From positions 23,212 through 87,211 of the IMG/VR virus record IMGVR_UViG_3300032334_000488: 64,000 nucleotides of DNA. One strand, given 5' to 3'. How positions within the stretch are numbered: the first letter of the stretch is position 1; each line of letters starts with the position of its first letter. This document shows, in pieces, positions 407 to 42,818 of this stretch. The DNA comes from a virus. The notes beneath the pieces were generated by a model. It searched no databases. It worked only from the letters and a program-made list of their open reading frames with translations, and was not told the origin of the DNA. A program made the translations under genes and the position numbers.

Positions 407-442
407 TATTACTCTCCTTTTGGTAGGGCTTTTGCTATTGCT

Positions 443-910: not shown

Positions 911-967
911 CTTGCTCCCCTAACTAACTAACTTCACCTGGCTGCCAGGTAGAGTTACTTCGAAGAT

Positions 968-991
968 AGCCCCGCCATTTCTGACGGGGCT
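968..991. terminator. hairpin, probable intrinsic terminator
   Basis: AGCCCCG(C/T)CA-type inverted repeat between the 1003 and 910 genes. Confidence 0.45.
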
Positions 992-1002
992 TCTCCTATT
1001 GC

Positions 1003-1587
1003 TTATGCTGTTCTTCCTAGTGCTTTCGCTTTCGCTTTTGCTAGGGCTTTTGCATGTGCTTCAGGGAATTGCTTCAGCCACTTCTTAACCACTGGGTTGC
1101 TGATGCCCTTCCATGATCTCCAGTCTTTGCCTTTTGCGCTCATGAAGTAAGCGATCTTGGCGTTCACCACAGGATTCAACAGTTGAGCGTTGTACTCTAA
1201 ATTGAACTTTTCCCTGCGATCTTGTCCCAATGAGTTAATCATGTTGACTTGGAACAACCCAAATGAGTTATCCCCTGTCTTACGATTGCCGTTATGGGAG
1301 AGAGGGTTTCCATGTGATTCTTTCATAGCGATTGCCCACGCATAGCGTAAGGCTTTGCCTTGAAACCCAACTGCGTGCAACAGGTCAACCAACTCAGTCT
1401 TAGTGAGGTGGTCGGCGTTATTGAACGGGGCTAGGGCTCGCTCTTGGTATTGCTTCTGCAAGACTTGCGCTTCGGCTCTTGAAGGTGAGAAGGCTGGTGG
1501 CATTACCACTAACCCACTACCAACAAACATCGCCGTAAATAGCGATCCGAATACGATCTTGCCTCTTCTTGTTAGATTCATCATCAC
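1003..1587 (-). CDS. lysozyme-like / lytic transglycosylase with N-terminal signal or TM segment
   Basis: AWAIAMKES (catalytic Glu)...GDNSFGLFQVNM...LLNPVVNAKIAY...W..W SLT motifs. Hydrophobic N-terminus. Confidence 0.8.
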   Translation of the reverse strand: MMMNLTRRGKIVFGSLFTAMFVGSGLVVMPPAFSPSRAEAQVLQKQYQERALAPFNNADHLTKTELVDLLHAVGFQGKALRYAWAIAMKESHGNPLSHNGNRKTGDNSFGLFQVNMINSLGQDRREKFNLEYNAQLLNPVVNAKIAYFMSAKGKDWRSWKGISNPVVKKWLKQFPEAHAKALAKAKAKALGRTA

Positions 1588-2846
1588 TCCAAAAAGTCAT
1601 TGACACTTTCTGATGCCTTTGACTGGTTGTGACGAAGGCGATGTAGGTATCGCTCTGTCGTCTTTATCGACTGATGCCCTAAGCGTTCCTTGACCTCATG
1701 CACATCTACCCCGCTTTTTAGAAGTTGGGTAGCGTTAGCGTGTCTGAGGTCATGGGTTCTAGGACTCCAGCCGATGCCTGACTTGGCTATTGCCTTGTTC
1801 CATGTAGTTCTCCATACATCTCGTGGTAGGTGGCTCGTATGGTCGATGAACCTCTGTTGCTTTTGGTATGGCTTTGTCTTTTGCCTGTGCTTTCGCACCG
1901 ACTCTCGACAAGCCTCGCATCGGCAACGCCCATGTGTATAGGCGTACAGAGTTCCATGCTGGAACAGTTTTCCGTCTTTGGCGAATGGTCGCCTAGACAT
2001 TTCTCCACGAGAAGTCTCTAGTTTACCTGTTGTTAAGATGATCGTTCTTGGGAACAACAGGTCATCTTTTGATAGGGCTTTTGCTATGACATAGCCCTGA
2101 ATCTCTTGTAGTAGGGCTTTGCTTAACATAAGGCTTCGCTTATGACCCGACTTTGTGGCTTCTACGACTAGAAACCTACTGGTATGGCTTGCCCCTAGAT
2201 CGCTGACTCGCCTTTGGACATAGACCTCGCCTGTCTTTAGGTTGATGTCTTTGACCCTGAGTTCTGTGGCTTCTCCGAATCGGCAACCTGATGCGACTAG
2301 GAATCGGGCGAATAACTGCGCCCCCTCAGTCGGTAGGTGCTGGATAATCGCCTTAAACTCTTCGGGCTCAACAACATTGGCGATGTCAGAATGCTTCGCC
2401 TTAATACGAATCCCATGTGTAGGGTTCTGAGTTAATTCTCCTGTATCGACTAACTGGGAGAGGGCAGACCCTAGCGATGCCTTGATCTGATTGAGGGTGG
2501 CTGAACCTATCCCCTGACCCCTGAGGGCTTGAAGTAACTCTTGAATCGCCCGTCTATCGATCGAAGTTACTTTGCGATCTCCGAGGGCTGGCAGGACATA
2601 GCGATCAAGGACTGACCGATAGCCCTTGCGAGTGATCGGCATGAGATCGGCGGTCGGAAGCCATGAATCGATGTAGGTCGATAGGGTAAATACAGCCCTA
2701 GAAGGCTCGCTAACGCCCGATACCTCTGCTTTTGAGGCGTGATACATAGCATCGATCTTCGTGTCCCATGTACCTGCTGAGAGGCGTTTTCCGCCCTTTC
2801 GGTAATAGCCTGTAAACCTATCCCCACGCTTTACGACATAAGCCAT
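1584..2846 (-). CDS. tyrosine recombinase/integrase with internal Cys/His insertion
   Basis: Catalytic R (GCRFGE), K (TKSG), HxxR (HDLRH), LGH and Y (ERYLH). SAM-like core-binding region present. Confidence 0.9.
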   Translation of the reverse strand: MAYVVKRGDRFTGYYRKGGKRLSAGTWDTKIDAMYHASKAEVSGVSEPSRAVFTLSTYIDSWLPTADLMPITRKGYRSVLDRYVLPALGDRKVTSIDRRAIQELLQALRGQGIGSATLNQIKASLGSALSQLVDTGELTQNPTHGIRIKAKHSDIANVVEPEEFKAIIQHLPTEGAQLFARFLVASGCRFGEATELRVKDINLKTGEVYVQRRVSDLGASHTSRFLVVEATKSGHKRSLMLSKALLQEIQGYVIAKALSKDDLLFPRTIILTTGKLETSRGEMSRRPFAKDGKLFQHGTLYAYTHGRCRCEACRESVRKHRQKTKPYQKQQRFIDHTSHLPRDVWRTTWNKAIAKSGIGWSPRTHDLRHANATQLLKSGVDVHEVKERLGHQSIKTTERYLHRLRHNQSKASESVNDFLE

Positions 2847-2860
2847 GATTCCCCCCTTCC

Positions 2861-2892
2861 ATGTTACTGGTGAGTAATGTTACTGGTGAGTA
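2861..2892. promoter_or_regulatory. tandem 16-bp repeat with internal palindrome upstream of integrase
   Basis: ATGTTACTGGTGAGTA occurs twice head to tail. Each unit forms TTACT-ggtg-AGTAA. Lies 15 bp from the start codon. Confidence 0.55.
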
Positions 2893-2903
2893 ACTTCGAA
2901 TGC

Positions 2904-2939
2904 AAAAAATAGCCCCTAGCCCGATTAGGGGCTAGGGGC
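2904..2939 (-). terminator. intrinsic terminator (minus strand)
   Basis: GCCCCTAGCCC/GGGCTAGGGGC stem with an A-run on the + strand, i.e. a U-tract on the minus strand. Confidence 0.7.
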
Positions 2940-3021
2940 GATAGTGACTGTGGGCTTAGGGAATCTGCTTATGTGCGCTTGAAGTAACTTCTACCAGCCC
3001 CAGATCAGGGCTGAAAGTTAG

Positions 3022-3252
3022 TTAGGGATAAAGAATCTCTTCCCAATCCGAATCTTCAAGATCAAGTAACTCGGTAGGCAGAACCTTCCAGCGATCATCG
3101 ATCGCAATAAAGTCCTCATTGATAAACCAATCAACATCAACGCCCCACTCACCAATAAATAATTTAGCGGTGTAGGTGTTTCCATTCATTGGAAACTCAA
3201 TCAAGTGTTCTGATGCGGTGTTTGCGCTACTAACAATTACATGAGCGACCAT
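3022..3252 (-). CDS. hypothetical acidic protein
   Basis: 76-aa ORF in the minus-strand operon. Confidence 0.55.
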   Translation of the reverse strand: MVAHVIVSSANTASEHLIEFPMNGNTYTAKLFIGEWGVDVDWFINEDFIAIDDRWKVLPTELLDLEDSDWEEILYP

Positions 3253-3256
3253 TTAT

Positions 3257-3448
3257 TTATTTCTCCATTTCTATTTGTGTTGTTCGATAAGAGTTCCACT
3301 CATCGATTGTTTCTTGCTTCCATAGTGGTCGATTGCCGATCATGTGATCGGGGTCGGGAAGGGTGTTTCGCTTTCGATAGGTGTAGATCGTGTCGATCTT
3401 TAGCCCTGTTTGTTGCGCGATGTCGGTAGTAGTGAGCCAGTCCTTCAA
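3257..3448 (-). CDS. AlpA/excisionase-like HTH protein
   Basis: WLTTTDIAQQTGLKIDTIYTYRKRNTLPDPD..IGNRPLWKQETIDEW is a typical AlpA/Xis winged HTH. Confidence 0.75.
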   Translation of the reverse strand: MKDWLTTTDIAQQTGLKIDTIYTYRKRNTLPDPDHMIGNRPLWKQETIDEWNSYRTTQIEMEK

Positions 3449-3930
3449 TTCGATGCACCAGTTTTCTGTTTAGTTTCATTAGGTTTTTTTCCAATCGTAA
3501 ACATTTTGAAATCGCCAAGCATTCGATCGAACCATAAATAAGGAAGATCGTTTTCAACATTGAAGTTGTAGTAATCAGCATCTTTGCGATTTAAGTTGCT
3601 CTGATGAGATTGATGAAATGACGAATCACCTAACCACACAGGCACTTCGCATTCAGGTAGTAACGAATGAACGGCAACGAATCGATCGAGCATGGTGTCT
3701 TTGTAACCACGATCAATCCACTCTTTGCAGATTGCGATTCCGTATTCACACAGAAGTCGTTCATGTCCACGCCACATCTTTGTAGCAGGGTGATTAGTCC
3801 AGCCCTTAGTCTCACCACGCAACGCTTGAAGTATTTGCCACGCCTCTACTCGTTGCTTGCCTAATCGTTTGTAATCGAGTGCTTTAGCAGTCTCTACGAA
3901 GTCAGGGAAAGGTAAGAATGTATTAACCAT
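3445..3930 (-). CDS. MSMEG_6728-like / pyrimidine-dimer glycosylase (endonuclease V) family protein
   Basis: TFLPFPDF...LDYKRLGKQRVEAWQIL...HPATKMWRG...HQSHQSNL.RKD..YY motifs. Confidence 0.8.
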   Translation of the reverse strand: MVNTFLPFPDFVETAKALDYKRLGKQRVEAWQILQALRGETKGWTNHPATKMWRGHERLLCEYGIAICKEWIDRGYKDTMLDRFVAVHSLLPECEVPVWLGDSSFHQSHQSNLNRKDADYYNFNVENDLPYLWFDRMLGDFKMFTIGKKPNETKQKTGASN

Positions 3931-4102
3931 TTGTAACCTCATCTAGTGTGTGCTTGATGAAATCATCGATTACTTCCCACATAGTGTCATTGGTAGTAAG
4001 CCATTCTCTGATCTTTGCCCACTCATCGTCAGTAAGTACTCTCCCTACTAGTTGAGTTGCTTCTTCACGAGTAAATAGCACGATGTCATTTGGATTAAGC
4101 AT
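3923..4102 (-). CDS. hypothetical protein
   Basis: Short ORF coupled to its neighbours. Confidence 0.5.
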   Translation of the reverse strand: MLNPNDIVLFTREEATQLVGRVLTDDEWAKIREWLTTNDTMWEVIDDFIKHTLDEVTNG

Positions 4103-4380
4103 TAGTTGTCCCTTCATAGTCCCAGTTTGATTTAACCCAGTTAAGTGCAGATAACCAATTAGTTAGATTTTCTTTGCCGAGATAAGGAAACTCATTGGCT
4201 TTTAGTTCATGTTCGATGAACGCAATTTCGTAATTGATGTCCTCAATAGTTTTCATTACTGATCTCCATTCATGTCGTTATCGTGATCGATGATGATTAC
4301 CTCTATGTCACTAGGGCAACGAGTTACTTCTGCAACGCCACCATTGACCTCTATTACTACCTGATTTTTTGCATACATAA

Positions 4381-4797
4381 CTACAACGCCCTTTCTTGAA
4401 TGTGTTGTGCATGAAGATCACACAAGATACTTCCTTTATCGTCACCTCTTGCATACCCTTCATACTTACAGATTTCGCAAGTGTGAACAGAACAACGATA
4501 CTTTCCGTCAGTACCGATCTTTAATTCTTCGGGAGTATCCCAACCACAAAAATCGCACTCCAATCGTTTGCCGTCTAGTTTTTGATTCTCTAGCAAGCGT
4601 TCAAGTCGTGCAATCTTTCTTTCTAATTCAAGATTAGTAAGAGTAGTTCCATGTTCTTTGGGAGGTTTAATTCCTAACTTCTCACACTCTTCTACAAGTG
4701 TTTCTCGATACTCCTGTGCATAACGCAGAGATAGTCGTTGCTTTGCACGAGAGACTGCTTTGTTACGAAGTTTTTTATCTTGTTCGTTTAGTTCCAT
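4381..4797 (-). CDS. hypothetical protein, coiled coil plus Cys-rich C-terminus
   Basis: 138-aa ORF, TAATG-coupled to whiB. Confidence 0.6.
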   Translation of the reverse strand: MELNEQDKKLRNKAVSRAKQRLSLRYAQEYRETLVEECEKLGIKPPKEHGTTLTNLELERKIARLERLLENQKLDGKRLECDFCGWDTPEELKIGTDGKYRCSVHTCEICKYEGYARGDDKGSILCDLHAQHIQERAL

Positions 4798-5072
4798 TAG
4801 TATTCTCCAATCACAGACACATACTGACGATACTTTCGATTCTCTCTACGGCGTAGCAACGCTCTCTCGTGATCTGTTAGACCACCGAAGATGCCGTACT
4901 GAACACCATTCTCTAGTGCGAATGTCAGACACTTATTCTTTGTGACCGCATCGCATTGACCACAGATTGATTTCGCTTCTCGAATCTTTTCATGCTCTGT
5001 TGGGTCAGGAAAAAAGATTTCAGGGTCGATACCTTTTGTCTGACATGGTGCATTGATAATCTCAATTTTCAT
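4797..5072 (-). CDS. whiB: WhiB family Fe-S transcription regulator
   Basis: Four Cys (C, CxxC, C), FFP, and GIFGGLT..ER turn with a basic tail. Confidence 0.9.
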   Translation of the reverse strand: MKIEIINAPCQTKGIDPEIFFPDPTEHEKIREAKSICGQCDAVTKNKCLTFALENGVQYGIFGGLTDHERALLRRRENRKYRQYVSVIGEY

Positions 5073-5403
5073 CTGTACTCCGATCTTTGTACTGCTCAGG
5101 ATTTGCGATCACATAATTAACGAACGAGTCCATGACATTTGTTAAGTCCTCAGGTTCTAACTCTGCATACTTCAAAAGAATCTCGATCATGTGCAGGAAT
5201 CCCCAAATAAGCATTTCGGGTTCGATCTCTTTATCTTCCATAACAGAGTTCAAGTGTTCATTGGCTAGATACTCTTTTACCTCTTGCGGAAGGCTATCTT
5301 TGCGATCAGAATCTACTTTGAATCCACGAACGATCTTTAGAAACTCGTTAGCGATCGTGATCGATTTAATTAAATCAGTTTGGTGTGATGATAGTTCAGC
5401 CAT
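5062..5403 (-). CDS. hypothetical protein
   Basis: 113-aa ORF with AGGAG RBS. Confidence 0.6.
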   Translation of the reverse strand: MAELSSHQTDLIKSITIANEFLKIVRGFKVDSDRKDSLPQEVKEYLANEHLNSVMEDKEIEPEMLIWGFLHMIEILLKYAELEPEDLTNVMDSFVNYVIANPEQYKDRSTDEN

Positions 5404-5629
5404 TTAATTTCTCCTTTAATTGATTGAGGTGTTCCATGTCTTTTTCGTACCCTTTAATCATGTGACTTTCTACTTTACGAATGATCTCTCGTGACACTCC
5501 GTAACGACCTGCAACGCTTGCTAACGATTCACCATTTATTCGTGATGAAAGAATGTCGTAGAGTTCGCCTAAAGTAAATGGGTGTATTTTTGATTTGATT
5601 TTGTTGAAGTTTTTATTGTTTGAAAGCAT
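5396..5629 (-). CDS. sigma-region-4-like HTH DNA-binding protein
   Basis: GESLASVAGRYGVSREIIRKVE. Confidence 0.65.
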   Translation of the reverse strand: MLSNNKNFNKIKSKIHPFTLGELYDILSSRINGESLASVAGRYGVSREIIRKVESHMIKGYEKDMEHLNQLKEKLNG

Positions 5630-5653
5630 TTGTAATCCTCTCTAGGTTATGGA

Positions 5654-5772
5654 ATCGAGTAGGGGCAGGTACGACTACGCCGTAACTATCGAATGCGATC
5701 ATGATCGCCCTTAGCAGGTAAGGAAGGGGAAATGATTAACCCCTATGAACCCTGCGTTGACCCCTACTCGAT
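5654..5772. ncRNA. candidate structured RNA / cis-element (multi-branch)
   Basis: Perfect 12-bp closing stem ATCGAGTAGGGG/CCCCTACTCGAT enclosing four short hairpins. Intergenic. Confidence 0.45.
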
Positions 5773-5946
5773 AAAGTTATTTTCTTATTACTTTCTGAAC
5801 ACAGTTAAAGCAGAACCACAACACATTCTGACCGCTTGAATCAGTTATGTATTTACCTGATGAAGTAACTTCATCATTGTTGCAATCATCGCAATTAGTT
5901 AGTTCGTGAGGTTGTACTTCACGAATGATCTGTGCGTATCCCATTG

Positions 5947-6132
5947 TTACACCTCTTCAATCTTCCCAGTTTGTTTGTACAACGCTTGTGCGAGTCTTGT
6001 TCCTTTTCTAACTCTTGGAGTTGCAGTTGACTTTACATCGCACCATACGAATCCCTCTTGGTGTCTAGTGATCTGACCAAGTATCTCGAACCATTGTTCA
6101 TCGACCTCAGCAGTTATTGTGTATTTAGCCAT
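5947..6132 (-). CDS. hypothetical protein
   Basis: 61-aa ORF with GGGGAG RBS. Confidence 0.5.
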   Translation of the reverse strand: MAKYTITAEVDEQWFEILGQITRHQEGFVWCDVKSTATPRVRKGTRLAQALYKQTGKIEEV

Positions 6133-6268
6133 GAGTTATCTCCCCTGCAAACAAGGTTCACAGATTAAGTATCCTTCTTTTGCATACATTTCATTGACAT
6201 CGTGCTGATCTCCACACTCGAAACAATCTCGAATGTGACGATACTTTTTGTCTAACAGTTTTGATTGT

Positions 6269-6502
6269 CTAAGAGTTATTGGCATCTAAATCTCCTTCAT
6301 CTAGCATTTTTGCATTCTGCCAAACAGTATCGTTGACATGACCCACACAGACATCGAGTGCATCATCACAGATGTTAATAGCATCGTCTGACAGTTCCTC
6401 GAAGTCTCTCGAATCCCACCAAGTAACTACGAGTGTCTCATCGAGTGCATTCCCATAGTTGCGTTGCAGAATCTCGATCGTCTCTTTTACAGTTGCGATC
6501 AT
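6269..6502 (-). CDS. hypothetical protein
   Basis: 77-aa ORF with AGGAG RBS. Confidence 0.55.
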   Translation of the reverse strand: MIATVKETIEILQRNYGNALDETLVVTWWDSRDFEELSDDAINICDDALDVCVGHVNDTVWQNAKMLDEGDLDANNS

Positions 6503-6669
6503 TTATTTTCTCCTGTCACTTCATCGATCATCTTTGTACATGAGCCATAGCCCAACCAGTTGCCACCCTCGCCTACATAGCAGACATCACGAGTTGCATA
6601 AGTAAATAACGACAACACAATAAGTGCAGGAATGATTACCAGCACAATCCAACCTCTACGAGTTAACAA

Positions 6670-7146
6670 TTAAGCATCTCCATTCTGTTTAGCCATTCGG
6701 TATTTCCATGAGTTACTAGCGATGTGAGTACGGATTCTGTGACACTTACCGCAACGAACATCGCACTTTGCGATTTCGTTTTCTAGTTTCTTGATTGTCA
6801 TGCCAGTCAGCATGAATGCGTGAGCGATGTTGTAACGCTTCTTTGCGCCTCGTACATGGTCGAAGTCGAGTGCCAGTACATCTCTCTCGCCACAGTCAAC
6901 GCATGGATTAGATTTCAAGTGATTGTAAATCCATTCCTTGATCTCTTTTCTTCGCTTCAAGTGCCACTCGACTTTGTAAGAATCTTCACAAGGTATGCAG
7001 TATGAAGTAACTCCCGACTTAGTTTTTGCAGATCGAAACTCACTTAAGTACTTTAATGAGTCACACCGCTTGCACTCCTTGATTCCGATAGCAAGAAAGT
7101 TTTCTCGCTCAATAGTCTTTGCAGACTTTCGGTTTCTAGTTGTCAC
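6670..7146 (-). CDS. HNH-family endonuclease
   Basis: CVDCGERD..ALDFDHV...IAKCDVRCGKCHRIRT plus an N-terminal Zn ribbon. Confidence 0.75.
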   Translation of the reverse strand: MTTRNRKSAKTIERENFLAIGIKECKRCDSLKYLSEFRSAKTKSGVTSYCIPCEDSYKVEWHLKRRKEIKEWIYNHLKSNPCVDCGERDVLALDFDHVRGAKKRYNIAHAFMLTGMTIKKLENEIAKCDVRCGKCHRIRTHIASNSWKYRMAKQNGDA

Positions 7147-7847
7147 GCAATCTCCTTCTTGTATAAGCGACTAAGTGGAAGTGTTTTGTATTTCAGATCG
7201 TGATGATTAGAAGGTGTCACATAAGCGACAATAAATCGTGACCCAGTTGTGTCAACGATTACGCCTTTACGCAAGCGACCATGACCCTGAATGAATACCT
7301 GATCGTTGATTACGGCGTTGTATGGAACGAAGTCACTCATGTTTGATGCGTAAGTCATTCGCTCAGTAGAGATCGAGATTAGTTGATCTTGAATCGCAAC
7401 GATCTTTGCTTCAAGATCGATTCGCTTCTTTGCGAGTTTGATTGTTTTCTCGATCTTGTCTGATGTGTGACTGCCACAGATAATTGCGTGTTCACTATTC
7501 CAGTTCAACGGCTTATCTGTGTGTTGTCCGTCAATACGCCAAGCCCATGCAAGAAAGATCGTATTGAATTGCAGATCACCACGAGATTTAATCTCTGATG
7601 CAGGTGCAGAATTAGGAAATGTGTTTCCGTTTACATCGAAGATGTCACACCACACATGATGAATGCCTTGCACAATGATTGAATGACCTTTGTACTCGAT
7701 CTCTTGATAGGTATTAGGTAATTGCTTTAGTTCAATCACATGATCGAATCTCTTGTTACGCAACCATGTTGAGTAGTGCGTACTACCTTGATAGTTCTTG
7801 TAGTACTTATCTTGAATCTCTACGAATCGATCTAGGAAGTAACTCAT
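7143..7847 (-). CDS. hypothetical protein
   Basis: 234-aa ORF, translationally coupled. Confidence 0.65.
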   Translation of the reverse strand: MSYFLDRFVEIQDKYYKNYQGSTHYSTWLRNKRFDHVIELKQLPNTYQEIEYKGHSIIVQGIHHVWCDIFDVNGNTFPNSAPASEIKSRGDLQFNTIFLAWAWRIDGQHTDKPLNWNSEHAIICGSHTSDKIEKTIKLAKKRIDLEAKIVAIQDQLISISTERMTYASNMSDFVPYNAVINDQVFIQGHGRLRKGVIVDTTGSRFIVAYVTPSNHHDLKYKTLPLSRLYKKEIA

Positions 7848-8465: not shown

Positions 8466-8560
8466 TTATTAGTTTCTCCTTAGTTGTAATTGTTTAAGTG
8501 GTGTGGTGCGCCAGCCTTCCACGAATAACGCACCACACCGAGTCACCTAGAGAGTGACAG

Positions 8561-10558
8561 TTAGTTGTTTACAAGACGGCGAGAGATCGCGTACTTCACG
8601 ATTGATTTCGCCATGTAAACAAGATCGAATGGATTACGAATTACAGAAGCGATTTCGCAATAGTGCGATGTCTGATCTGTAAGAGGTTGCACCGCTTCTC
8701 CGTTTTCAGGAATGTAAGCGAATGCAGTAAGCACACCAGCACGAGCCATGCGCTTGATAGTTTCGTGATTAGCATCTTGATTGCCCGACCATTCTCCGTC
8801 AGTAATTGCGAAGAAGATTCGTACAGGTTTCTCAGTTTCAGCAAGCAATTTAGTTGCGTACTTAATTGCTTGATCTGCTGATGTACCGCCACCAGTACCA
8901 GCATCACGAATCGTGTTACCGACACGATCAGTTGCACGATAGAGAGTGTTTGCATGATCGTTGAAAGTGATAACAGTTGTATTTGCACTAACGCGATCAA
9001 GTGCCTTCTTAATTGCGTACATGGCTTTGTATGCACTAGAGGCTTTGTGTCCTGACATTGAACCTGAGTTGTCTAACAAGATCACGCATTCAATCTCAGT
9101 CGCATCTTCACGACCCTCATTCCATTGATCGAATACAGTATCGAGATCATCGCCACGTAAATAACGATGTGCAGATAAACGACCTTGTGACTCGTACTTA
9201 TCCCATGCAGGGTCGAACGATGCTCTCAATCGCTCTAACTCACGACCGAATGACAACGATGCTTGAAATGTATTTGCATCAGGTGCTAAGTCGTGAAAGC
9301 GATCTAGTTCAGGTTCTTTTGAGTTGTTAGTAGCAAGAGAAGGTAAGCCACCAATCTGTCGCAAGATGTCGTTGATTTCAGTTTCATTAGAATCAAGAAT
9401 GTTTTCTAATAGATCACCAATCAATGTGTCGATCATTTCGCCAGCAGAATTACCAGCAGAATCAGAAGAAGAAGGCGAATCAAAATCTTGATCTGAATCC
9501 TGATCTGAATCTGTATCATCGAAATCGAAATCGATGTCGTTGATGTCAACATCGATAACAGGTTTTGATTTCAGTTGTTCAGCCAGTTGTGCATCATCTT
9601 CTTTGTCGAGTTGTTGTGATCGATCACGATCTTTTTCTTGCTTCTTTGGTGGAACAGGTCGTGAGTTTGCAGAGGATTCCAAGCCCTCTTGTGGTCGCTT
9701 GCCATGACCGAATGGGTCATTGATGCGAACGATTACATCGCCCTCTTCACCAGCCTGTGCAGGGCGCACAGAGCCATTCTCGCCACTACCTGAACCATTA
9801 CCTGAGCCATTACCTTTTGGAAGTAACTCGTTAAATCGCGCAATTAGTTCCTTTCCTTTTTCAGTATCAGCAGGGAATAGAAGAGTGCGGTATTCATCGA
9901 CTACTGCACAGATTTCATCGATCTGATCTTGATGAGGATAGGCGTTACGAGATTGCGCTCTTAACTCCACAGGTAAGTATCTACGACCACGCAATAGCGG
10001 ATAAGAGTTAGTGAATGCCTCTTTGTTATCAACGAAGTGAATCAAGATTGTGGCAGTAAACCAATCAATCGTTGACGGATACTTTGAGGTAAAGAGAGTT
10101 TCGATTCTCTGATCTTCTAGTGCGTTGTATGCGGTGAAGTAATTGTTATCTCGTACATAATCGAAGAGTTCTGAACCCTCACGAGATGTGTAGAGAATGT
10201 GGCTGATCTCGTGAAGATCAAGCCCCTTGATACCAGCGATTGATTTAGCATCGTTGAGATCACCGATAGTGCGAGAGTTGAAAGTAACCGATGATGCACC
10301 TGACCAAGCAGGTGCTTCCATTGGTGAGTTCTCGACAGTCACAGTCACTTTGCGAAATGTGAATGCAGAATTAACACGACCGAAGAATTGTGTGAATCGT
10401 TCTAGTCGTTGCTTCTTCTCTTCTGCTTTCAACAGTTGTGATCGTAGTGACTCACGAGTCTCACCGAGAATGTCGAGTTCCCATTCTGCGACTGCATCGT
10501 TGTAATCCATTGTTACTCCATTTCGTTTACATGACGGACAATTACCACAAGCACACAT
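8561..10558 (-). CDS. vWA-domain protein with N-terminal HExxH metallopeptidase-like domain (start may be 10510)
   Basis: HEISH...NALED.RIE, acidic linker, MIDAS DNSGS...GGGT...TDG. Confidence 0.85.
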   Translation of the reverse strand: MCACGNCPSCKRNGVTMDYNDAVAEWELDILGETRESLRSQLLKAEEKKQRLERFTQFFGRVNSAFTFRKVTVTVENSPMEAPAWSGASSVTFNSRTIGDLNDAKSIAGIKGLDLHEISHILYTSREGSELFDYVRDNNYFTAYNALEDQRIETLFTSKYPSTIDWFTATILIHFVDNKEAFTNSYPLLRGRRYLPVELRAQSRNAYPHQDQIDEICAVVDEYRTLLFPADTEKGKELIARFNELLPKGNGSGNGSGSGENGSVRPAQAGEEGDVIVRINDPFGHGKRPQEGLESSANSRPVPPKKQEKDRDRSQQLDKEDDAQLAEQLKSKPVIDVDINDIDFDFDDTDSDQDSDQDFDSPSSSDSAGNSAGEMIDTLIGDLLENILDSNETEINDILRQIGGLPSLATNNSKEPELDRFHDLAPDANTFQASLSFGRELERLRASFDPAWDKYESQGRLSAHRYLRGDDLDTVFDQWNEGREDATEIECVILLDNSGSMSGHKASSAYKAMYAIKKALDRVSANTTVITFNDHANTLYRATDRVGNTIRDAGTGGGTSADQAIKYATKLLAETEKPVRIFFAITDGEWSGNQDANHETIKRMARAGVLTAFAYIPENGEAVQPLTDQTSHYCEIASVIRNPFDLVYMAKSIVKYAISRRLVNN

Positions 10559-10560
10559 TG

Positions 10561-11442
10561 TTAAGCCGTTGCGTGTTCTGTTGTGATCTTTTCAGCATCG
10601 AGTCCAAGTTCTTCTCGAATGTTGTATGAAGTACCTTCAAGAAGCATCTTGACTGCGGGGCGTTCTTCATCAGAGAAGTTGTTTATGAATACATCGCAAG
10701 CGAAATCGAATGACAATCCTTTTGCAACCTTCTCGAATGTTTTCAAGATACGAGGTGATACAGGTGTCTCGAAGATAGTGCCACGATCTGATGCGTGATC
10801 GTCTCTGCGAGATGTTGATCGCATTCCGTTTGCGAGTTCCAAGAGTGAAGAGGATTTGATGATCTTCTTCTCAATCGTTGTGTCGTAATCGAATCGCAAT
10901 TTAATTTCGAAGCGATCTTTCCAAGCCTCGTTAAGTAACTGAGTACCTCGATAGTTTGGATTCTGATCTGCAACCACTAATAGATCAGGGTGTGCGTTGA
11001 TTACTTCGTTGTCATGTGACATGAGAGTAATTGAACGGCGATCATCGAGAAGGCTCATTAAGTACTGTGAGAGGTTCTTAGGGGCGTTGTTGAGTTCGTT
11101 GATAAGTAGCAAGCCACCCTCACGAACGATCTTTGTAATTGCGCCGTCAACCCACTTTAGTTTGCCGTCAGCATCAGGGAACAAACCACCAATTAATTGT
11201 GTGAAGTCGATTGCAGAGTTACATGGAACAGCGAAGAAGTTCATGTGTCGCTTTGATGCGTAAGCAAGTGCCGATGTTGTCTTGCCAGTTCCAGCATCGC
11301 CTTCGATTAAGATGTTCATGTTGTGAGCAAGTGCGAAGTCGTACATGGCATCTTCTGTAACGCCACCAGTAAAGGTGCGTGGAATGTAGTGCGATGTCTT
11401 TTCTAGCGTTGGAATAAATAGTGATTTGTTTTCTGTAGTCAT
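10561..11442 (-). CDS. MoxR/CbbQ-type AAA+ ATPase
   Basis: Walker A GDAGTGKT, WVDG, Walker B LLLINE, NPNYRGT..LNEAWKDRF. Adjacent to the vWA gene. Confidence 0.9.
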   Translation of the reverse strand: MTTENKSLFIPTLEKTSHYIPRTFTGGVTEDAMYDFALAHNMNILIEGDAGTGKTTSALAYASKRHMNFFAVPCNSAIDFTQLIGGLFPDADGKLKWVDGAITKIVREGGLLLINELNNAPKNLSQYLMSLLDDRRSITLMSHDNEVINAHPDLLVVADQNPNYRGTQLLNEAWKDRFEIKLRFDYDTTIEKKIIKSSSLLELANGMRSTSRRDDHASDRGTIFETPVSPRILKTFEKVAKGLSFDFACDVFINNFSDEERPAVKMLLEGTSYNIREELGLDAEKITTEHATA

Positions 11443-11466
11443 GTTGTTTTCCGTTTCTCTAGGTGT

Positions 11467-11733
11467 TTAGTTTGTTTGGTAGTCGGTTGTTACTGCATCA
11501 GGGTTTTTAACGATGATCTTTGATGCGAGGTACAGATCATCGAGTTGTGTAGTTAGTTCCTGAAACTCGTTGAAGATGTTGCACTCTTCTTCAATACGAG
11601 ATTCGATCTTTGGTAGTACAGATTGAAGCACCGCAACGATCTGTGGTGGTGCGCCATTTTCAAGTGCGTTGTCGAGTGCCACCTCAACCATTGTGTGAAG
11701 TAATCCGAGTTCATCGAGATTGAATTGACTCAT
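11467..11733 (-). CDS. hypothetical protein
   Basis: 88-aa ORF. Confidence 0.55.
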   Translation of the reverse strand: MSQFNLDELGLLHTMVEVALDNALENGAPPQIVAVLQSVLPKIESRIEEECNIFNEFQELTTQLDDLYLASKIIVKNPDAVTTDYQTN

Positions 11734-11828
11734 TAGATACCTCGATTCGATTGCGATAGTTCGTGGAATAAGTTTTCGATCAGTACACCAACAACGCCAG
11801 CGATTACTGCAAGAATGAAAATAACCAT

Positions 11829-12116
11829 TTAGTCCTCATCTCTATCTATCCAAGCATTTAGGAATAGTCCGTCAACGGCGTTGATCGCAGTTACAGTTGT
11901 TGAATTACGAAATTGCACACCAGCAGGTAGTTCAATTTCGAGATCGTATTGCTCATTGTTAACCGCCTTGATTGCTTCCTTAGCAACGGCGATCATAAAG
12001 TCAGGAATCGGTGGATAGCAGTTATTACCGAAATGAATTGCTAATTGTTGTTCGAGATCAATAACAAACTCACCGCTTGCTAGATCGTTTGCGAAAGTAG
12101 AACCCATGTTATGCAA
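11829..12116 (-). CDS. hypothetical protein
   Basis: 95-aa ORF with HFGNNCYPPIP motif seen in actinophage proteins. Confidence 0.6.
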   Translation of the reverse strand: MHNMGSTFANDLASGEFVIDLEQQLAIHFGNNCYPPIPDFMIAVAKEAIKAVNNEQYDLEIELPAGVQFRNSTTVTAINAVDGLFLNAWIDRDED

Positions 12117-12402
12117 CCGCCTTTCTTACATAGTTTTGATGTTTTGATGTTGTAGTTGAGTATTTGCAGTTAGGCATAAACCAACCGCTATTAGAATGCC
12201 AAGCGATTGGTGTTGAGTATGAGTACACAATAAAGTCAGGTCGATCTAACTCCAGTTGATCTCGAAACTCTTGTGGAAGTCTGCCGAAATCGTAAGCGTA
12301 TTCATTTGGCGCAATAACAACGCCGTAGAGATTGTTACCTGTGAATGCAACGCGATCAACGATTAGATCGCCAGCCTTTGTGTTTGATGTTCTAGTTGTC
12401 AT
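12109..12402 (-). CDS. conserved phage hypothetical protein
   Basis: YSYSTPIAW...YSTTTSKHQN motif common in phage early regions. Confidence 0.65.
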   Translation of the reverse strand: MTTRTSNTKAGDLIVDRVAFTGNNLYGVVIAPNEYAYDFGRLPQEFRDQLELDRPDFIVYSYSTPIAWHSNSGWFMPNCKYSTTTSKHQNYVRKAVA

Positions 12403-12688
12403 TTAGTTTCTCCGTTACATAGTCGGCAGATAAGAGCAGGTTTGTCGTTTAGTTTTACGAACCATAGATCGGTTGAAGGTTTAGCGCAGATAGCGCAGTC
12501 AAGAATGATTGACATTTATTTCGCCACTTTTACAATGTCGAGTTGTTTGATGAAGTCGAGTGTGTAGTTATCTGATTTAGTTGAGTAGAAGCGAGTTCCG
12601 TCATTTAGTAGTAGATCGATAGCGATCTCTGTAATACGACCACGAGCAACGATGTTGCCCTTTGCATCTATGAATGTTTGTTGTTTCA

Positions 12689-12931
12689 TTAGTTGTTGTC
12701 CAATCCTGTAGTCAAAGCCTTTTGCAGTTCTGCATTAAATACTCGTGTTGTAGGTGCTTCTCCATAAGGAGTGAAGTTTGTTGAGAGATTGACACGAACG
12801 AATCCGTCTCTATAAAACTTGATTCGTTTTTTAGAACTTAGAAAACCTTCGTATGAATAAAGATACTTTCCTGTGTTGGTGTCATAGAAATCCCAAACAC
12901 CTGTTGTTCCAATTACTGTTTTGGTTGTCAT
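12689..12931 (-). CDS. hypothetical protein (first gene of left arm)
   Basis: 80-aa ORF starting MTT, like several neighbours. Confidence 0.55.
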   Translation of the reverse strand: MTTKTVIGTTGVWDFYDTNTGKYLYSYEGFLSSKKRIKFYRDGFVRVNLSTNFTPYGEAPTTRVFNAELQKALTTGLDNN

Positions 12932-12974
12932 TTTTTATTCCGTTTCCTTTTGTAGTTACTAGTGGAATTGAATA

Positions 12975-13870
12975 CATCGAGTTATGTATTCATAGCGATC
13001 GATCACCAAGATAGTTCGCTGACTATTTATGGTGATCGATCACTATTAACACATAAGCAGAAGTGCTGATCGTTGTTGTTGTAACTAGTTTCAATGTGCA
13101 ATCGGTTGGATTGATTACCACCTGCACTCACTAGTAGAGACATTCCGTCACTAGTTACATGACGATCTCCACACTTCAATTTCCCTAAGCCCTACTGCTA
13201 TTCACAATCAGTTTCTTGATCGTTAATCCGCGCCCTTGAAATACCGCTTGAATGTATTTACTAATTACATTCGCATCGCCGTAGCAAGCATGATCGAATC
13301 GATTATTTATTTCGGTGTTATTGCATCGTATAGTCCGACCGCACACTTTCTGCCTTAGTAACTGATTACTAGTTGTAATCAATACCGAATAAATAAATCG
13401 CAGTTTCTTAGTCACTATAAAAAATAAATAAATAAATTGATCGTCACCTAAGTACTGTCCCTAAGGAAATCTTTCGCAGGTTAGTTCACCGATGTTTATT
13501 TATTATTTAATTATTGTTAAAGCCTGTTACCAGTTTTAACGATTCGCTTTTTTCACTTTGAATGATTCACCAATTTGCCCCTAGAGGATTCTGAAATCGG
13601 TGGTCACACATCGAGTGCGCTACTAGGAGAATTGAACCACATCTGTACGACAAATTGGGACAGGCTGATAAGAGGGGTTTTTGGTGTCACGCTCAAAAAA
13701 TCCCACCCCACAGAATGGGCGCAGAAGAACGATCGCCCCATGAATAGGGTTCTTATTCCAGTATTGGGGGTAAAGCCCTGAGAGAGCCTATAGAAGCCGT
13801 ATAAGGGCTATTGAGCGTGAGGCTGATAGGGGCAGTTTGAGCGTGGGGTGTTGCGTGGGTCACACCTGCC
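12975..13870. ncRNA. candidate long structured non-coding element
   Basis: Successive long imperfect inverted repeats with G-U-type pairs. No credible ORF. Confidence 0.4.
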
Positions 13871-13945
13871 GAAGTAACTGCCAAGATCGCTAGTTCCGCC
13901 AAGTAAGTCCGAGCAAATAGTTGAAAGTTCAATTACATTACTCCG

Positions 13946-14323
13946 ATGCGAGAATGCCGAGAGTGCAGAGTTGAGAAGCCGTTAGATCGTTACGAGTTAA
14001 CAGGTCATGGCTATCACCGAAAGATTTGCATGAGTTGCAGATCGTCACGAAAGCGAATAAAGAGATTGCCACGACAATTTGGAATCAGTTACCAAGAATT
14101 GTTAGTGATGAAAGAAGAACAAGATTACAAGTGTGCGATCTGTGGAATACATGAAGAGAACACAACAAAAAAGTTAGCGGTAGATCACGATCACAAAACT
14201 AATCGAGTGCGTGGGTATCTGTGCAATAACTGCAACAGGGGAATTGGTTTATTGAAAGATGATGTAGAAGTGATGAAGAGAGCGATTGTTTATTTAGAGC
14301 GCAATTTATCGAATGATGTTTAG
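13946..14323 (+). CDS. endonuclease VII-like (probable homing) endonuclease
   Basis: CAICG...LAVDHDHKTNRVRGYLCNNCNRGIG. Confidence 0.85.
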   Translation: MRECRECRVEKPLDRYELTGHGYHRKICMSCRSSRKRIKRLPRQFGISYQELLVMKEEQDYKCAICGIHEENTTKKLAVDHDHKTNRVRGYLCNNCNRGIGLLKDDVEVMKRAIVYLERNLSNDV

Positions 14324-14359
14324 CCTGTATTCGGGGGTAATCGGGGGTATAAATAACCT

Positions 14360-14809
14360 ATGAAAATCTGCATAGTTTGTGAGAAAGAGTTGCCTCTTAG
14401 TAAGTTCGAGATGAACGGAAACACCCGAAGGAATCAATGCGTATCTTGTAGGTTTCAACAAAAAAAGAATCGCCCTTCTTATGATTCCGTAATAAAGCCT
14501 AAAATCAAGAATTATCGATTGAAGCAATACGGAATAACTATTGAGGATTACAACGAGATGTTAAGTAAACAGAACGGCGTGTGCGCTATCTGTAAAACTA
14601 ATCCGTATCCTGATAAAAAGTTCTGTGTAGATCACGATCACAATACAGGCGTAGTTCGTGGGTTGTTGTGCGATTTATGCAATAGAGGTATCGGGTTGAT
14701 GCGTGATGATGTCGTAATCCTAGCGTCTGCTATTGATTATTTAACGCCCCTCTTTTCTCAGAAGGAAGGGGTCACAGGGGAAACCTCGTTTCCCCTGATA
14801 AAAGAATAA
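14360..14809 (+). CDS. endonuclease VII-like endonuclease
   Basis: YGIT..Y...Q.GVCAIC...VDHDHNTGVVRGLLCDLCNRGIG. Confidence 0.85.
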   Translation: MKICIVCEKELPLSKFEMNGNTRRNQCVSCRFQQKKNRPSYDSVIKPKIKNYRLKQYGITIEDYNEMLSKQNGVCAICKTNPYPDKKFCVDHDHNTGVVRGLLCDLCNRGIGLMRDDVVILASAIDYLTPLFSQKEGVTGETSFPLIKE

Positions 14810-14892
14810 GTTGTTTATGACCAAAGTATTTAAGAGAGAATAGAGAGATAGATACATTGATTGGTTACTAGATTGCTTGCTGGTATTAAGTG

Positions 14893-15170
14893 TTGGTACA
14901 ACCTGATAATAGAGATCACTATCTGATTCACATAGCAACAGGTAACTAACTATGTGATGAAAAGGTACATTTGAAATAGTTAGTTAACTACCTGATAACA
15001 AGTGGCTGAGATGACTGACAGGCTGGTGGTATGCACACAGGCAATCTGTTTCAGAATGCAGTAGCCGAAGCGATCACGATGTCATGTCACCAAAATTGTC
15101 ACCAAACTATTGGTACAACCTGATAACAAAGCGTGTGTTAACAACATCGCACCTGATTAGTAGTCAGGTG
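14893..15170. repeat. iteron-like direct repeats and hairpins
   Basis: TTGGTACAACCTGATAA at 14893 and 15110. ACCTGATAACAAAG at 14990 and 15118. TGTCACCAAA at 15085 and 15097. Confidence 0.6.
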
Positions 15171-15703
15171 ATGATGTGAACATTGTAAAAAATAAATTGA
15201 CCCCCCCACCATTAACGCAAACACACACGATGAGCGGCCAGGTCGGAGCCATGATTGAGGGGTTTAGGCTGAGGCAGTAGCCAAAATGAGCAATAATCGG
15301 CCACATGAGCGAAATTCAGCCCCTATCTATGGCTTCTGAGCCTTGTTGCAGCACAAATTGCCCTTGTAAAGAGGAAAATGATGACAAATAGTCAAAATTT
15401 GTCGGCATCACAGTTTGGCAACACGGTAAGTGTGGCCAAGGCGTGAATATCGCCTTCATCATCGTTGCAATTGTCGTTGTTGGAGTTGCATTGTGGGCAT
15501 CAGAGCAGTAATCTAGTTCTACGACTGGTAGGCGAGCACGACTTAACTTCCAAAAGTGTAGGGGACTGTCGTGAGTCCACCTACGGCCAGTTGTCAGCCA
15601 AATCCCTGCACTGCTAAATGCAGGGCTTTGTGCTGTAAAGAGCCCCCTAAAATTTTTTCTCAGTAACAACTCAAGGCAGTAGCCTTAATGCAACAATACT
15701 CAC

Positions 15704-30641: not shown

Positions 30642-30723
30642 TCTTGATGAGGTAGTCATGGGCGCTGAAGCCTTCTACGCTATTGCCAAAGAATTAAAGC
30701 GACGTTCACAGAGTTCACTATGA
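30478..30723 (+). CDS. hypothetical protein upstream of terminase
   Basis: 81 aa, ATGA-coupled to the terminase gene. Confidence 0.55.
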   Translation: MRILRKKQVGHQPQTRIEKRVSMVSTPDLISWMEQAMFTIGKSISTWQRHQSEADLDEVVMGAEAFYAIAKELKRRSQSSL

Positions 30724-42815: not shown

Positions 42816-42818
42816 TCC

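Follow-up and report, generated by a model that had tools for sequence, protein, structure and literature searches.

A restriction-site-free region of 14 kb at a predicted genome end of a freshwater actinobacterial phage, the probable leading DNA of staged genome entry

To our knowledge, staged genome entry has been shown experimentally in only a few laboratory phages; entry of the T7 genome is slow and linked to transcription. According to one report, the first-step-transfer DNA of T5 and BF23 is a terminal segment of ~10 kb that carries early genes and is free of restriction sites, the rest of the genome tolerates such sites, and T5 DNA is cut by EcoRI only if the site lies in this segment (10.1101/866236). 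For the Autographiviridae, another report states that the leading region is the only part of the genome where type I motifs have an effect (PMC12455610).

The window that we analyzed comprises 64,000 nucleotides (positions 23,212 to 87,211 of IMG/VR record IMGVR_UViG_3300032334_000488); the full contig has 87,211 bp, the record is 87% complete, and the genome is ~95 kb long. Our sequence data were assembled contigs, the form in which all 20 sequencing runs found are stored, and our relatives are 18 fetched IMG/VR records with 52-92% identity in the VWA (CobT-like) protein, the query used to find them. The phage is a relative of Streptomyces phage BRock: its TerL is 52.5-53.3% identical to those of BRock-like cultured phages over 94-100% of its length, its portal protein has 60% identity to this lineage, and 12 genes upstream of the window are collinear. 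Judging from the related terminase and portal and the collinear genome, it belongs to the BRock-like group (Borockvirus and allies), a lineage it has in common with BRock, LuckySocke, and GiJojo, together with collinear replication genes. The phage is not T5-like; it is related to BRock (TerL 52.5% identity) and belongs to an unrelated actinophage lineage.

The central feature of the window is the following:
950..15233, unstranded: site-free island of 14,284 bp, with exact counts of 0 for GGCC, CCWGG, GCNGC, GGWCC, and ATAT and 1 for ACGT

The initial annotation had claimed that these six words are missing between ~950 and ~15,230 and that GGATC/GATCC are missing after ~1550. Our exact counts over 950-15232 bear this out for GGCC, CCWGG, GCNGC, GGWCC, and ATAT, all with 0 copies, and for GGATC (0 copies) and GATCC (a lone copy at 1544); in the case of ACGT the depletion stood but the absence did not, as one copy occurs at 9155. 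Sites reappear on the right as abruptly as described, with GCNGC at 15234, GGCC at 15236 and 15299, and CCWGG at 15238, followed by GCNGC at 15348, ATAT at 15447, and ACGT at 16730. Across the complete contig of 87,211 bp, there are gaps of 14,293 bp each in CCWGG (945 to 15238) and in GCNGC (941 to 15234).

Codon or GC composition, which the initial annotation had named as the explanation to exclude, does not account for the depletion. Composition alone predicts 30 GGCC, 93 ATAT, and 53 ACGT in the island. When synonymous codons were permuted among the island genes in 300 runs, with proteins and codon usage preserved, the expected counts were 17.2±3.5 for GGCC, 8.8±2.8 for CCWGG, 10.7±3.2 for GCNGC, 39.6±4.9 for ACGT, and 45.0±4.6 for ATAT, and the observed counts of these five words were matched in none of the 300 shuffles; the case of GGWCC is weaker (3.8±1.9 expected, and the observed 0 reached in 9 of 300 shuffles). 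Because both calculations predict many more sites than are found, codon use and GC content are not the cause, and the depletion operates on words and not on codons.

At least 16 distinct short words are banned from the island. The five rarest of its 256 4-mers are all palindromes, and 51 of the 64 hexamer palindromes are absent, compared with 10.2±2.3 in the codon shuffles and 23-31 in other parts of the genome. Two factors indicate that particular sites are avoided, not palindromes in general. First, eleven pairs of 5-mers with 13-23 expected copies are absent from the island, among them the asymmetric GGATG/CATCC and CCATC/GATGG, as well as CGWCG. Second, certain palindromes are enriched, including ATCGAT; GATC, TCGA, CGAT, and ATCG are ~2.5-fold enriched. 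AGCT and CCGG are absent from the whole contig and not from the island alone, a likeness to genome-wide restriction-site avoidance, where both the selective agent and the types of words avoided are the same. In the pattern seen here, by contrast, most of the avoidance occurs in a single compartment that makes up one sixth of the genome and has edges defined to within a few bases. As neither AGCT nor CCGG occurs in the genome outside the island, the phage must have some protection besides staged entry.

The same zone was identified in all 18 relatives, as a gap in CCWGG/GCNGC/GGWCC of 10.1-13.7 kb with flanks that carry several of these sites per kb. GGATG/CATCC has 0-1 copies in each of the 19 islands. 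Other bans are specific to lineages: those on ACGT, ATAT, and GGCC switch on or off between relatives, and three of the four most divergent contigs (L017-L019) have also lost GTAC and TGCA, with 57-60 of the 64 hexamer palindromes absent there. Because every lineage bans extra words of its own, the selection is ongoing, and the island is neither a chimera nor a recent import.

The right, outer edge of the island coincides with a predicted genome end, at which we identified these elements:
14794..15126, plus strand: repeated CCTGAT(A/T)A words, all on the same strand, which may serve in packaging or end binding; ACCTGATAA occurs at 14901, 14990, and 15118
15024..15239, plus strand: predicted short direct terminal repeat of 216 bp, by landmark homology with the repeats of LuckySocke, GiJojo, and BRock; the right end of the virion DNA is predicted at its right edge
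15150..15170, plus strand: conserved hairpin CACCTGATT(A/G)(A/G)TAGTCAGGTG (fold -18.8 kcal/mol, z -6.2)
15199..15215, plus strand: C-tract GACCCCCCCACCATTAA; in the cultured relatives, 25-26 nt separate the end of this tract from that of the repeat
15234..15242, plus strand: junction motif GCGGCC/AGG (slash, repeat end) with the first restriction-type sites, aligning with the ...GCC/TAGT repeat end of the cultured relatives

This edge is abrupt (27.9 sites per kb in the first kb, n=13), and the tetranucleotide spectrum shifts at 15214 (z 3.5). It falls within a conserved non-coding element (15024-15290) whose ordered landmarks match the terminal repeats of three cultured relatives, deposited as linear records with exact direct terminal repeats of 344 bp in LuckySocke, 197 bp in GiJojo, and 221 bp in BRock. 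In these three, CAGTAGCC begins at repeat position 37, here at position 36; the hairpin varies among relatives at two loop-side positions only, and the repeat end reads CC/WRGT in this phage and in the cultured relatives. The homology predicts a right terminus at ~15239, ~6 nt from the last site-free base (15233), and lends independent support to the genome end near 15.2 kb proposed in the initial annotation, as a predicted terminus. The outer edge lies at the homologous column of the element in all 14 of the 18 relatives that hold it, and the distance from the element hairpin to the first CCWGG/GCNGC/GGWCC site beyond it is 58-69 nt in 30 of 33 related loci. Contigs from four runs bridge both island edges, and the assemblies of three complete relatives are circular and have the element in their interior; these observations fit short repeats or concatemers and prove no end. 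The contig ends of the relatives do not cluster at the predicted terminus.

The inner edge is of a different kind:
937..991, unstranded: inner edge, with the palindrome CCTGGCTGCCAGG (937-949, the last sites) followed by a hairpin at 970-991 (-25.3 kcal/mol, z -5.4)
417..2190, plus strand: same-strand TGGTAKGGCTT array across the inner edge, with 6 copies at 421-2180, present in 12 of the 16 relatives holding this edge

Here the edge is sharp for CCWGG and GCNGC and lies further left for ACGT (-1339), GGCC (-3492), and ATAT (-5094), and recovery is gradual (14.9, 18.6, and 21.4 sites per kb; n=17, 15, and 12). The strong hairpin closes the leftward operon as the terminator of the early region; it has no T-run and is absent from the terminator-scan list. 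Of the 16 relatives that hold the inner edge, 7 have a hairpin no more than ~100 nt from it, and in 3 of these 7 the left neighbor is a different one.

The genes of the island and their signals are as follows:
1003..13415, minus strand: leftward operon of ~28 ORFs, reading inward from the predicted end (ORF calls)
1003..1587, minus strand: SLT lysozyme-like protein, the last island gene (family match)
1584..2846, minus strand: tyrosine recombinase (integrase family), in 17 of 18 relatives (family match)
2912..2939, minus strand: strong intrinsic terminator that precedes the recombinase gene within the operon (-25.9 kcal/mol, z -5.2)
3445..3942, minus strand: pyrimidine-dimer DNA glycosylase (family match)
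4797..5072, minus strand: WhiB-like regulator (family match)
6670..7146, minus strand: HNH endonuclease, in 18 of 18 relatives (family match)
8561..10558, minus strand: VWA (CobT-like) protein of 665 aa, core, in 18 of 18 relatives (family match)
10561..11442, minus strand: AAA_5 (CobS/MoxR-like) ATPase, core, in 18 of 18 relatives (family match)
11467..12116, minus strand: two small acidic proteins (88 and 95 aa, both with pI 4.1 and a net charge of -11), DNA-mimic candidates by sequence properties
13502..13539, minus strand: two overlapping matches to sigma-70-like promoters, immediately 5' of the leftward operon (consensus match only)
13946..14809, plus strand: two endonuclease VII-like genes (13946-14323 and 14360-14809), transcribed toward the end (family match)

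The promoter matches lie 1.7 kb from the predicted end, in a leader rich in AT and in hairpins; the operon starts with 2 kb of variable small genes, followed by a core kept in 18 of 18 relatives. As the site-free zone also covers the two outward-facing genes and the terminal non-coding DNA beyond the promoter, its extent depends on where the end lies, not on the limits of any single transcription unit. The WhiB-like regulator points to an actinobacterial host; the phage is a freshwater actinobacterial phage. Our Pfam and PHROGs scan covered 20 of the 33 ORFs in 950-15233, leaving out 13 small ones. No anti-restriction gene was recognized, and an ArdA search had no match; ocr (PF08684) and a single-subunit RNA polymerase (PF00940) also gave no match in this 87% complete record, but the controls matched in no genome. 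The 88-aa acidic protein has a predicted fold, a helical hairpin, without a PDB match, and neither of the two modelled early proteins had PDB neighbors. Early-looking small genes, including GNAT acetyltransferases, also occur at the other end of the genome.

The island resembles T5 and BF23 first-step-transfer DNA in that sites are absent from a segment with early genes and a defined inner boundary and tolerated elsewhere. It differs from T5 in three respects. It lies outside any long terminal repeat (~10 kb in T5), and contig depth shows no two-fold excess; it has no DnaA-box stop signal (0 TTATCCACA in the contig, and 7 scattered matches to a relaxed pattern, none clustered at the inner edge); and its banned vocabulary is far wider than one enzyme. 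No family annotated A1 or A2 was found among the 20 of 33 island ORFs scanned with Pfam and PHROGs. It resembles the T7-like Autographiviridae in having early genes that read inward from the presumed leading end and a terminator that closes the early region; a short terminal repeat, as in these phages, is predicted here, and in them restriction motifs matter only in the leading region (PMC12455610). Unlike in T7, the region measures 14 kb in a ~95-kb genome, and two outward-facing genes separate end and promoter. The cultured BRock, LuckySocke, and GiJojo share the terminal-repeat landmarks and likewise have genes at that end that read inward. In LuckySocke and BRock, these genes form a block of ~10-12 kb that starts at the same physical end, so the gene order agrees with the predicted end. 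However, the terminal block of LuckySocke shows no depletion of palindromes (it has 152 hexamer palindromes, where the rest of the genome predicts 103), and LuckySocke and GiJojo carry beside the block an ArdA-like gene, of which none was found here. By tblastn, no protein homology was found between the island and these terminal blocks; the lone match of island ORFs is the WhiB-like gene to the LuckySocke WhiB at ~84 kb, outside its terminal block.

We consider it rather likely that the island is the leading DNA of a staged or slow genome entry, which must survive host restriction until early products act. In this reading, the virion DNA would be linear and have short direct repeats at its ends, and the island would form its last 14.3 kb on the right, with a terminus whose position is predicted by homology. 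It most likely enters the cell first and would stay there unprotected for some time, while host RNA polymerase would express the inward-reading early operon. A restriction site anywhere in the island would be lethal, and selection would thus remove the words of the enzymes met by each lineage; the remaining genome would enter later, or already protected by early products, and could keep a normal word density. The inner-edge hairpin, perhaps with the same-strand repeat array, may mark a stop of early transcription and possibly of entry. We infer entry order, the entry pause, and the neutralization of restriction by early products from the depletion pattern alone, and the polarity of entry is deduced from the depletion itself.

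Among the other explanations, the one that survives best is that the phage modifies the bases of the genome bulk and leaves the early terminal block unmodified for host polymerase and regulators, and hence site-free. The normal site density outside the island does require some protection, and a DpdA-like transglycosylase is annotated in the cultured relative GiJojo (gene 181), with a syntenic 501-aa gene just left of the island. However, the 501-aa protein has neither a Pfam match nor a PDB sequence match, no DNA methyltransferase family was found in the record, and ATAT, which has no G, is banned in the island only. Moreover, the zone passes the transcription unit and stops only 6 nt short of the predicted end, an extent not expected if transcription were the reason, and no known mechanism spares one 14-kb segment; we regard this explanation as unlikely. 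Self-sparing, in which early phage nucleases destroy host DNA and any phage DNA already in the cell has to be free of the words they cut, is clearly less probable still. It would suit the HNH and the two endonuclease VII-like proteins of the island, and a similar idea was proposed for T5 protein A1 in 10.1101/866236, but the size of the banned set and its differences between close lineages with the same nuclease genes fit many host enzymes better, and staged entry would be needed here as well. That the island is a long terminal repeat of T5 or SPO1 type, assembled as one collapsed copy, is very improbable. The circular assemblies are compatible with it, and GCNGCCAGGT is common to both edges in the window and three close relatives, but this motif is absent in more distant relatives, the repeats of the cultured relatives (197-344 bp) and the predicted one here (216 bp) are short, and in the source run the depth of contigs wholly inside the island (11.9 and 10.8) shows no two-fold excess over contigs lying 39-62% outside it (11.6). 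A foreign module, integrated element, or assembly chimera with a composition from another history, to which the recombinase gene near the inner edge and the tetranucleotide change at 15214 might point, is hardly credible for a block that 18 of 18 relatives, with protein identities as low as 52%, carry in the same position, each with a banned set of its own and normal flanks; in addition, no flanking direct repeats >7 nt were found, and contigs cross the edges.

More tentatively, it is possible that this freshwater actinophage family, whose contractile-tailed cultured relative LuckySocke encodes a tail sheath, delivers its DNA in stages, that the banned words of the leading 14 kb are a lineage-by-lineage readout of the restriction enzymes of uncultured hosts, and that the graded inner edge reflects the order in which these enzymes are disarmed during entry. 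The case suggests that staged entry is common in abundant freshwater actinobacterial phages and recognizable from sequence alone, its signature being a terminal compartment without restriction words, bounded by the genome end on one side and by a terminator on the other. Lineage-specific banned words would predict the restriction enzymes of uncultured hosts, and the variable genes at the operon start offer a defined place to seek new anti-restriction proteins. The cultured Streptomyces relatives, which share the layout and lack the depletion, provide a natural comparison. If the family does deliver its DNA in stages, the sequence of an uncultured phage would by itself show which end goes in first, where entry stops, and which restriction enzymes the host has.

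Exact counting over the window confirms a long block, here called the island (positions 950-15233), from which short restriction-type words are missing. GGCC, CCWGG, GCNGC, GGWCC and ATAT have no copies in it, and ACGT and GATCC occur once each, at 9155 and 1544, respectively. The initial annotation had described the stretch from ~950 to ~15,230 as free of the first five words, of ACGT and, after ~1550, of GGATC/GATCC; this description stands except for the single ACGT, and the positions it gave for the first sites to the right agree with our counts. Counted over the whole contig, the CCWGG gap runs from 945 to 15238 and the GCNGC gap from 941 to 15234. The window covers bases 23212-87211 of a single IMG/VR record of 87,211 bp, classed as linear and 87% complete, whose ends are assembly breaks because both sit within genes. 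The words considered in our study include the recognition sequences of HaeIII (GGCC), EcoRII (CCWGG), Fnu4HI (GCNGC), AvaII (GGWCC), FokI (GGATG), BccI (CCATC), AluI (AGCT), and HpaII (CCGG).

Base composition leads to an expectation of 30 GGCC, 93 ATAT, and 53 ACGT in the island. Our null model used 300 permutations of synonymous codons among the island genes, with proteins and codon usage kept; it gave 17.2±3.5 GGCC, 8.8±2.8 CCWGG, 10.7±3.2 GCNGC, 39.6±4.9 ACGT, 45.0±4.6 ATAT, and 41.9±5.3 AGCT. None of the 300 shuffles matched the observed counts of these six words, and for GGWCC (3.8±1.9 expected) zero was reached in 9 of 300, which argues against codon use or composition as the cause of the depletion, the explanation that had been named as fatal to the original claim. 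In addition, 51 of the 64 hexamer palindromes are missing from the island, compared with 10.2±2.3 in the shuffles (maximum 17) and 23-31 in five equal-sized pieces of the remaining genome, and, among all 256 tetramers, each of the five rarest is palindromic. It is particular words that are banned, not palindromes as a class, because asymmetric words are missing and some palindromes are over-represented. For example, GGATG/CATCC and CCATC/GATGG are among 11 5-mer pairs with 13-23 copies expected and none found, while GATC, TCGA, CGAT, and ATCG are enriched about 2.5-fold (GATC: 140 copies vs 105±6 in the codon shuffles) and ATCGAT is also over-represented. The restricted vocabulary may by itself produce this enrichment.

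A union of 18 word classes occurs at 0.4 per kb in the island vs 25-38 per kb outside, a contrast of which only the sharpness is informative, not the size, since the set was picked from the island itself. Of the change-point analyses, proposed earlier as a check, a tetranucleotide divergence scan with no words chosen beforehand found the outer edge at 15214 (z 3.5, the second-highest peak of the genome) but missed the inner edge, the nearest listed peak being at 3464 (z 2.1). A two-change-point fit to all 80 palindromic 4- and 6-mers misplaced the segment (-4011 to 2389, negative positions lying left of the window), because the excess of GATC and TCGA cancels the losses. The strongest tetranucleotide change-points in the genome, at 39214 and 46364, flank two collagen-like tail-fibre genes (39822-46462).

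Using as a query the 665-aa VWA protein of the island (CobT-like gene, 8561-10558, minus strand), we found 18 related IMG/VR contigs with 52-92% identity. In all 18, the largest CCWGG/GCNGC/GGWCC gap measures 10.1-13.7 kb between flanks that carry several such words per kb; the zero within each gap holds by construction, the gap length does not. GGATG/CATCC has 0-1 copies in each of the 19 islands. The group closest to the window bans both ACGT and ATAT; L007, L011, and L016 ban ACGT alone; and L008, L009, L012, L013, and L014 ban neither, with GGCC kept even in L012 and L014. GATC is missing throughout seven relatives, and the GATC-type enrichment of the island holds in the 11 that have it. 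L017-L019, three of the four contigs that diverge most, additionally ban GTAC and TGCA in the island; they lack 57-60 of the 64 hexamer palindromes there, with 1.0-1.1 per kb vs 6.6-8.6 in the flanks. AGCT and CCGG show a second, genome-wide layer of avoidance: the 87-kb contig has no AGCT anywhere, nor do the islands and flanks of any of the 18 relatives, and CCGG is missing everywhere but in L008 and L019. Outside the island, CGCG is rare, yet it has seven copies inside. No near-identical phage DNA was found for the island, and the sole phage DNA match of the right arm covers 330 bp at 75% identity. In four Streptomyces phages, part of a gene annotated as major capsid protein is 75% identical in DNA to the stretch 21161-21493, which lies within an ORF (20605-21489) with CHAP and peptidoglycan-binding domains; the capsid gene of the window itself is located at 36383-37510.

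The packaging genes are uninformative on the genome end because they are distant: the terminase gene (30720-32300), with portal and capsid genes alongside, is 15 kb to the right of the outer edge. The closest cultured phages are the Streptomyces phages BRock, LuckySocke, Alone3, GiJojo, and pSt2308 (TerL 52-53% identity). The ends of SEA-PHAGES records are determined experimentally, and exact terminal repeats are present in the linear records of LuckySocke (344 bp), GiJojo (197 bp), and BRock (221 bp). Upstream of the window, 12 genes show collinearity with LuckySocke 83.5-99.3 kb. Past that segment, LuckySocke has a 10-kb block reading inward from its right physical end; BRock, whose record was deposited in the opposite orientation, has the equivalent inward-reading block at its left end. 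Synteny would therefore place the end of the window phage between 13.4 and 15.3 kb. The three cultured repeats share four landmarks: first, a GGGTGG-like start; second, CAGTAGCC from repeat position 37; third, a C-tract, ...CCCCCC(T/C)ACCTTTAA, ending 25-26 nt before the repeat end; and fourth, an end that falls between ...GCC and TAGT. Some 40-110 nt past the repeat end, LuckySocke and GiJojo have a further CAGTAGCC, and BRock has CAGTATC only. The same series is found in the window.

Window counterparts of the landmarks in the cultured terminal repeats
15024: TGGTGGTATGC
15059: CAGTAGCC
15199-15215: GACCCCCCCACCATTAA
15234-15239: GCGGCC, with AGGT following from 15240
15275: CAGTAGCC

This match predicts a 216-bp terminal repeat (15024-15239) with the right terminus at ~15239, in keeping with the earlier proposal of a physical genome end near 15.2 kb. 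With this terminus, the first restriction-type words (GCGGC 15234, GGCC 15236) would fall in the last six bases of the molecule, and CCAGG at 15238, which spans the predicted end, would exist nowhere but at the inner junction of the left-end copy. Of the 18 relatives, 14 have a locus that includes the outer-edge element, and it is conserved in all of these. A search with the pattern of its hairpin (15150-15170) returned 34 loci, 22 of them new contigs and 33 with sequence to the right; the first CCWGG/GCNGC/GGWCC site comes 58-69 nt past the hairpin in 30 of the 33 and 225-226 nt past it in the other three. To the left, 30 of the 34 loci are site-free to the locus end (59-11,658 nt available), and the remaining four have a site at 323, 714, 714, and 11,942 nt. 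The contig ends among the 34 loci do not cluster at the predicted terminus, six related contigs end at differing places 2-3.5 kb upstream of the CobT-like gene, and no continuation of the region is seen at the far end of a 76-kb contig. Three complete relatives (94.7-97.4 kb) circularise with the hairpin in a single internal copy, which is what short repeats or concatemers would give.

At 15274-15310 and 15676-15710, preceding the first two rightward ORFs, GGCAGTAGCC is followed ~20 nt on by CACATGAGC, with ATG as the start codon; the pairing looks like a candidate phage-specific promoter with leaderless starts. The first of these ORFs (15305-15388) encodes a predicted 27-aa Cys-rich peptide. 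Sigma-70-like promoter matches are scarce in window 1-16500 (10 vs 31.8±6.4 in shuffles), a probable consequence of the avoidance of TATA and ATAT, and Rfam gave no match in window 500-16500. The genes of the island and its neighbourhood are as follows.

Genes of the island and its left neighbourhood
13415 to 1003, minus strand: leftward operon of the island
13946-14809, opposite to the operon: two endonuclease VII-like genes, also site-free
19246-20751 of the whole contig (G000:C1), just left of the window: 501-aa protein, syntenic with a GiJojo gene annotated as a DpdA-like transglycosylase

The genes in the first 2 kb of the operon are small and poorly conserved, and two encode strongly acidic proteins. 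The operon core is present in 18 of 18 relatives (AAA_5 ATPase, VWA protein, two unknown proteins, HNH nuclease, 56-aa protein, and WhiB regulator), and two genes lie at the far end, one for a tyrosine recombinase (17 of 18 relatives) and one SLT lysozyme-like (16 of 18). Structure models of two early proteins (pLDDT 84.5 and 87.0) had no PDB neighbours at E <= 0.001. The WhiB gene and the identity of the closest cultured relatives suggest an actinobacterial host; of four sequencing runs compared with the region, the three not from the source sample are labelled freshwater metagenome.

At the inner edge, the window and three close relatives have their last sites in the palindrome CCTGGCTGCCAGG, followed by a hairpin (970-991, -25.3 kcal/mol, z -5.4); three more relatives, in which the left neighbour differs, also have a hairpin no more than ~100 nt from the edge. 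This edge is less abrupt than the outer one, with GGCC, ATAT, and ACGT gone for a further 1.3-5 kb in this genome. Across relatives, lineage-banned words reach 14.9, 18.6, and 21.4 per kb in the first three kb past the inner edge (n=17, 15, 12; the 14.9 is lowered by a stray island site that shifts the edge as defined in four relatives), vs 27.9, 26.3, and 26.9 beyond the outer edge (n=13, 12, 11). A same-strand TGGTAKGGCTT array lies over the inner edge, with six window copies (417-2190) around the recombinase gene; it occurs in 12 of the 16 relatives that hold this edge and is gone from the most divergent clade. Copies of this motif may serve as binding sites for the recombinase or contribute to an entry stop. 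DnaA boxes are absent.

We consider it reasonably probable that the island makes up the last 14.3 kb at the right end of the virion DNA and that this end would enter the cell first, the remainder following only once early products neutralise host restriction. T5 and T7-like phages are known cases of staged entry in which the rest of the genome follows after early products act. As a rule, DNA packaged last leaves first. The depletion follows distance from the end rather than the transcription unit, because the zone passes the operon promoter region and reaches the end of the molecule. The abrupt outer edge agrees with a physical end there, and the graded inner edge with a stop that is leaky or depends on time. 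The polarity of entry is deduced from the depletion itself. Several observations count against staged entry. Early-looking genes, GNAT acetyltransferases among them, are found at the opposite end too, and avoidance of AGCT and CCGG extends to the whole genome. Searches for known anti-restriction families were negative, with no match to ArdA or ocr. RNA polymerase had no match either; the controls for ocr and RNA polymerase were uninformative, matching in no genome. Furthermore, the LuckySocke terminal block (100-114.5 kb), which has the same layout, does not show this depletion, and palindromes are not reduced in it; it is distinct in composition (GC 0.57 vs 0.53, CGCG raised, GAAG/CTTC four-fold low) and adjoins an ArdA-like gene.

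The main rival, that the bulk genome is chemically modified and the early block left unmodified, is unlikely in our view: it explains neither the extension of the zone to the terminus nor the ATAT ban. The record has no match to methyltransferase families PF01555, PF00145, and PF02086, and the 501-aa TGT-like protein has no Pfam or PDB sequence match. Self-sparing from the phage's own nucleases fits more poorly and has little probability. A collapsed long repeat is a still poorer candidate: depths in the source run are 11.9 and 10.8 for contigs wholly within the island and 11.6 for contigs 39% and 62% outside it, so a long terminal repeat lacks the expected two-fold excess, at a resolution of one depth figure per contig. 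An integrated element was also rejected, its flanking direct repeats not going beyond a shared 7-mer. A foreign or chimeric origin is scarcely credible, since a fixed island position with a shifting banned vocabulary makes a chimera or recent import impossible.

That restriction-site avoidance is needed only in the DNA entering first is already known, the requirement having been placed in the first-entering DNA of T5 (10.1101/866236) and in the leading region of Autographiviridae (PMC12455610). In contrast to these systems, the window phage comes from an actinophage lineage unrelated to them, the banned short words number at least 16 and form lineage-specific sets, and both island edges can be tied to sequence features; unlike in T5, the compartment is not a long repeat. 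We found no description of a multi-word site-free terminal block in actinophages in the literature searched. New here is the proposal that ties the outer edge to the terminal repeat seen in cultured relatives. The compartment keeps its place while its banned vocabulary changes, and is thus under continuing selection.
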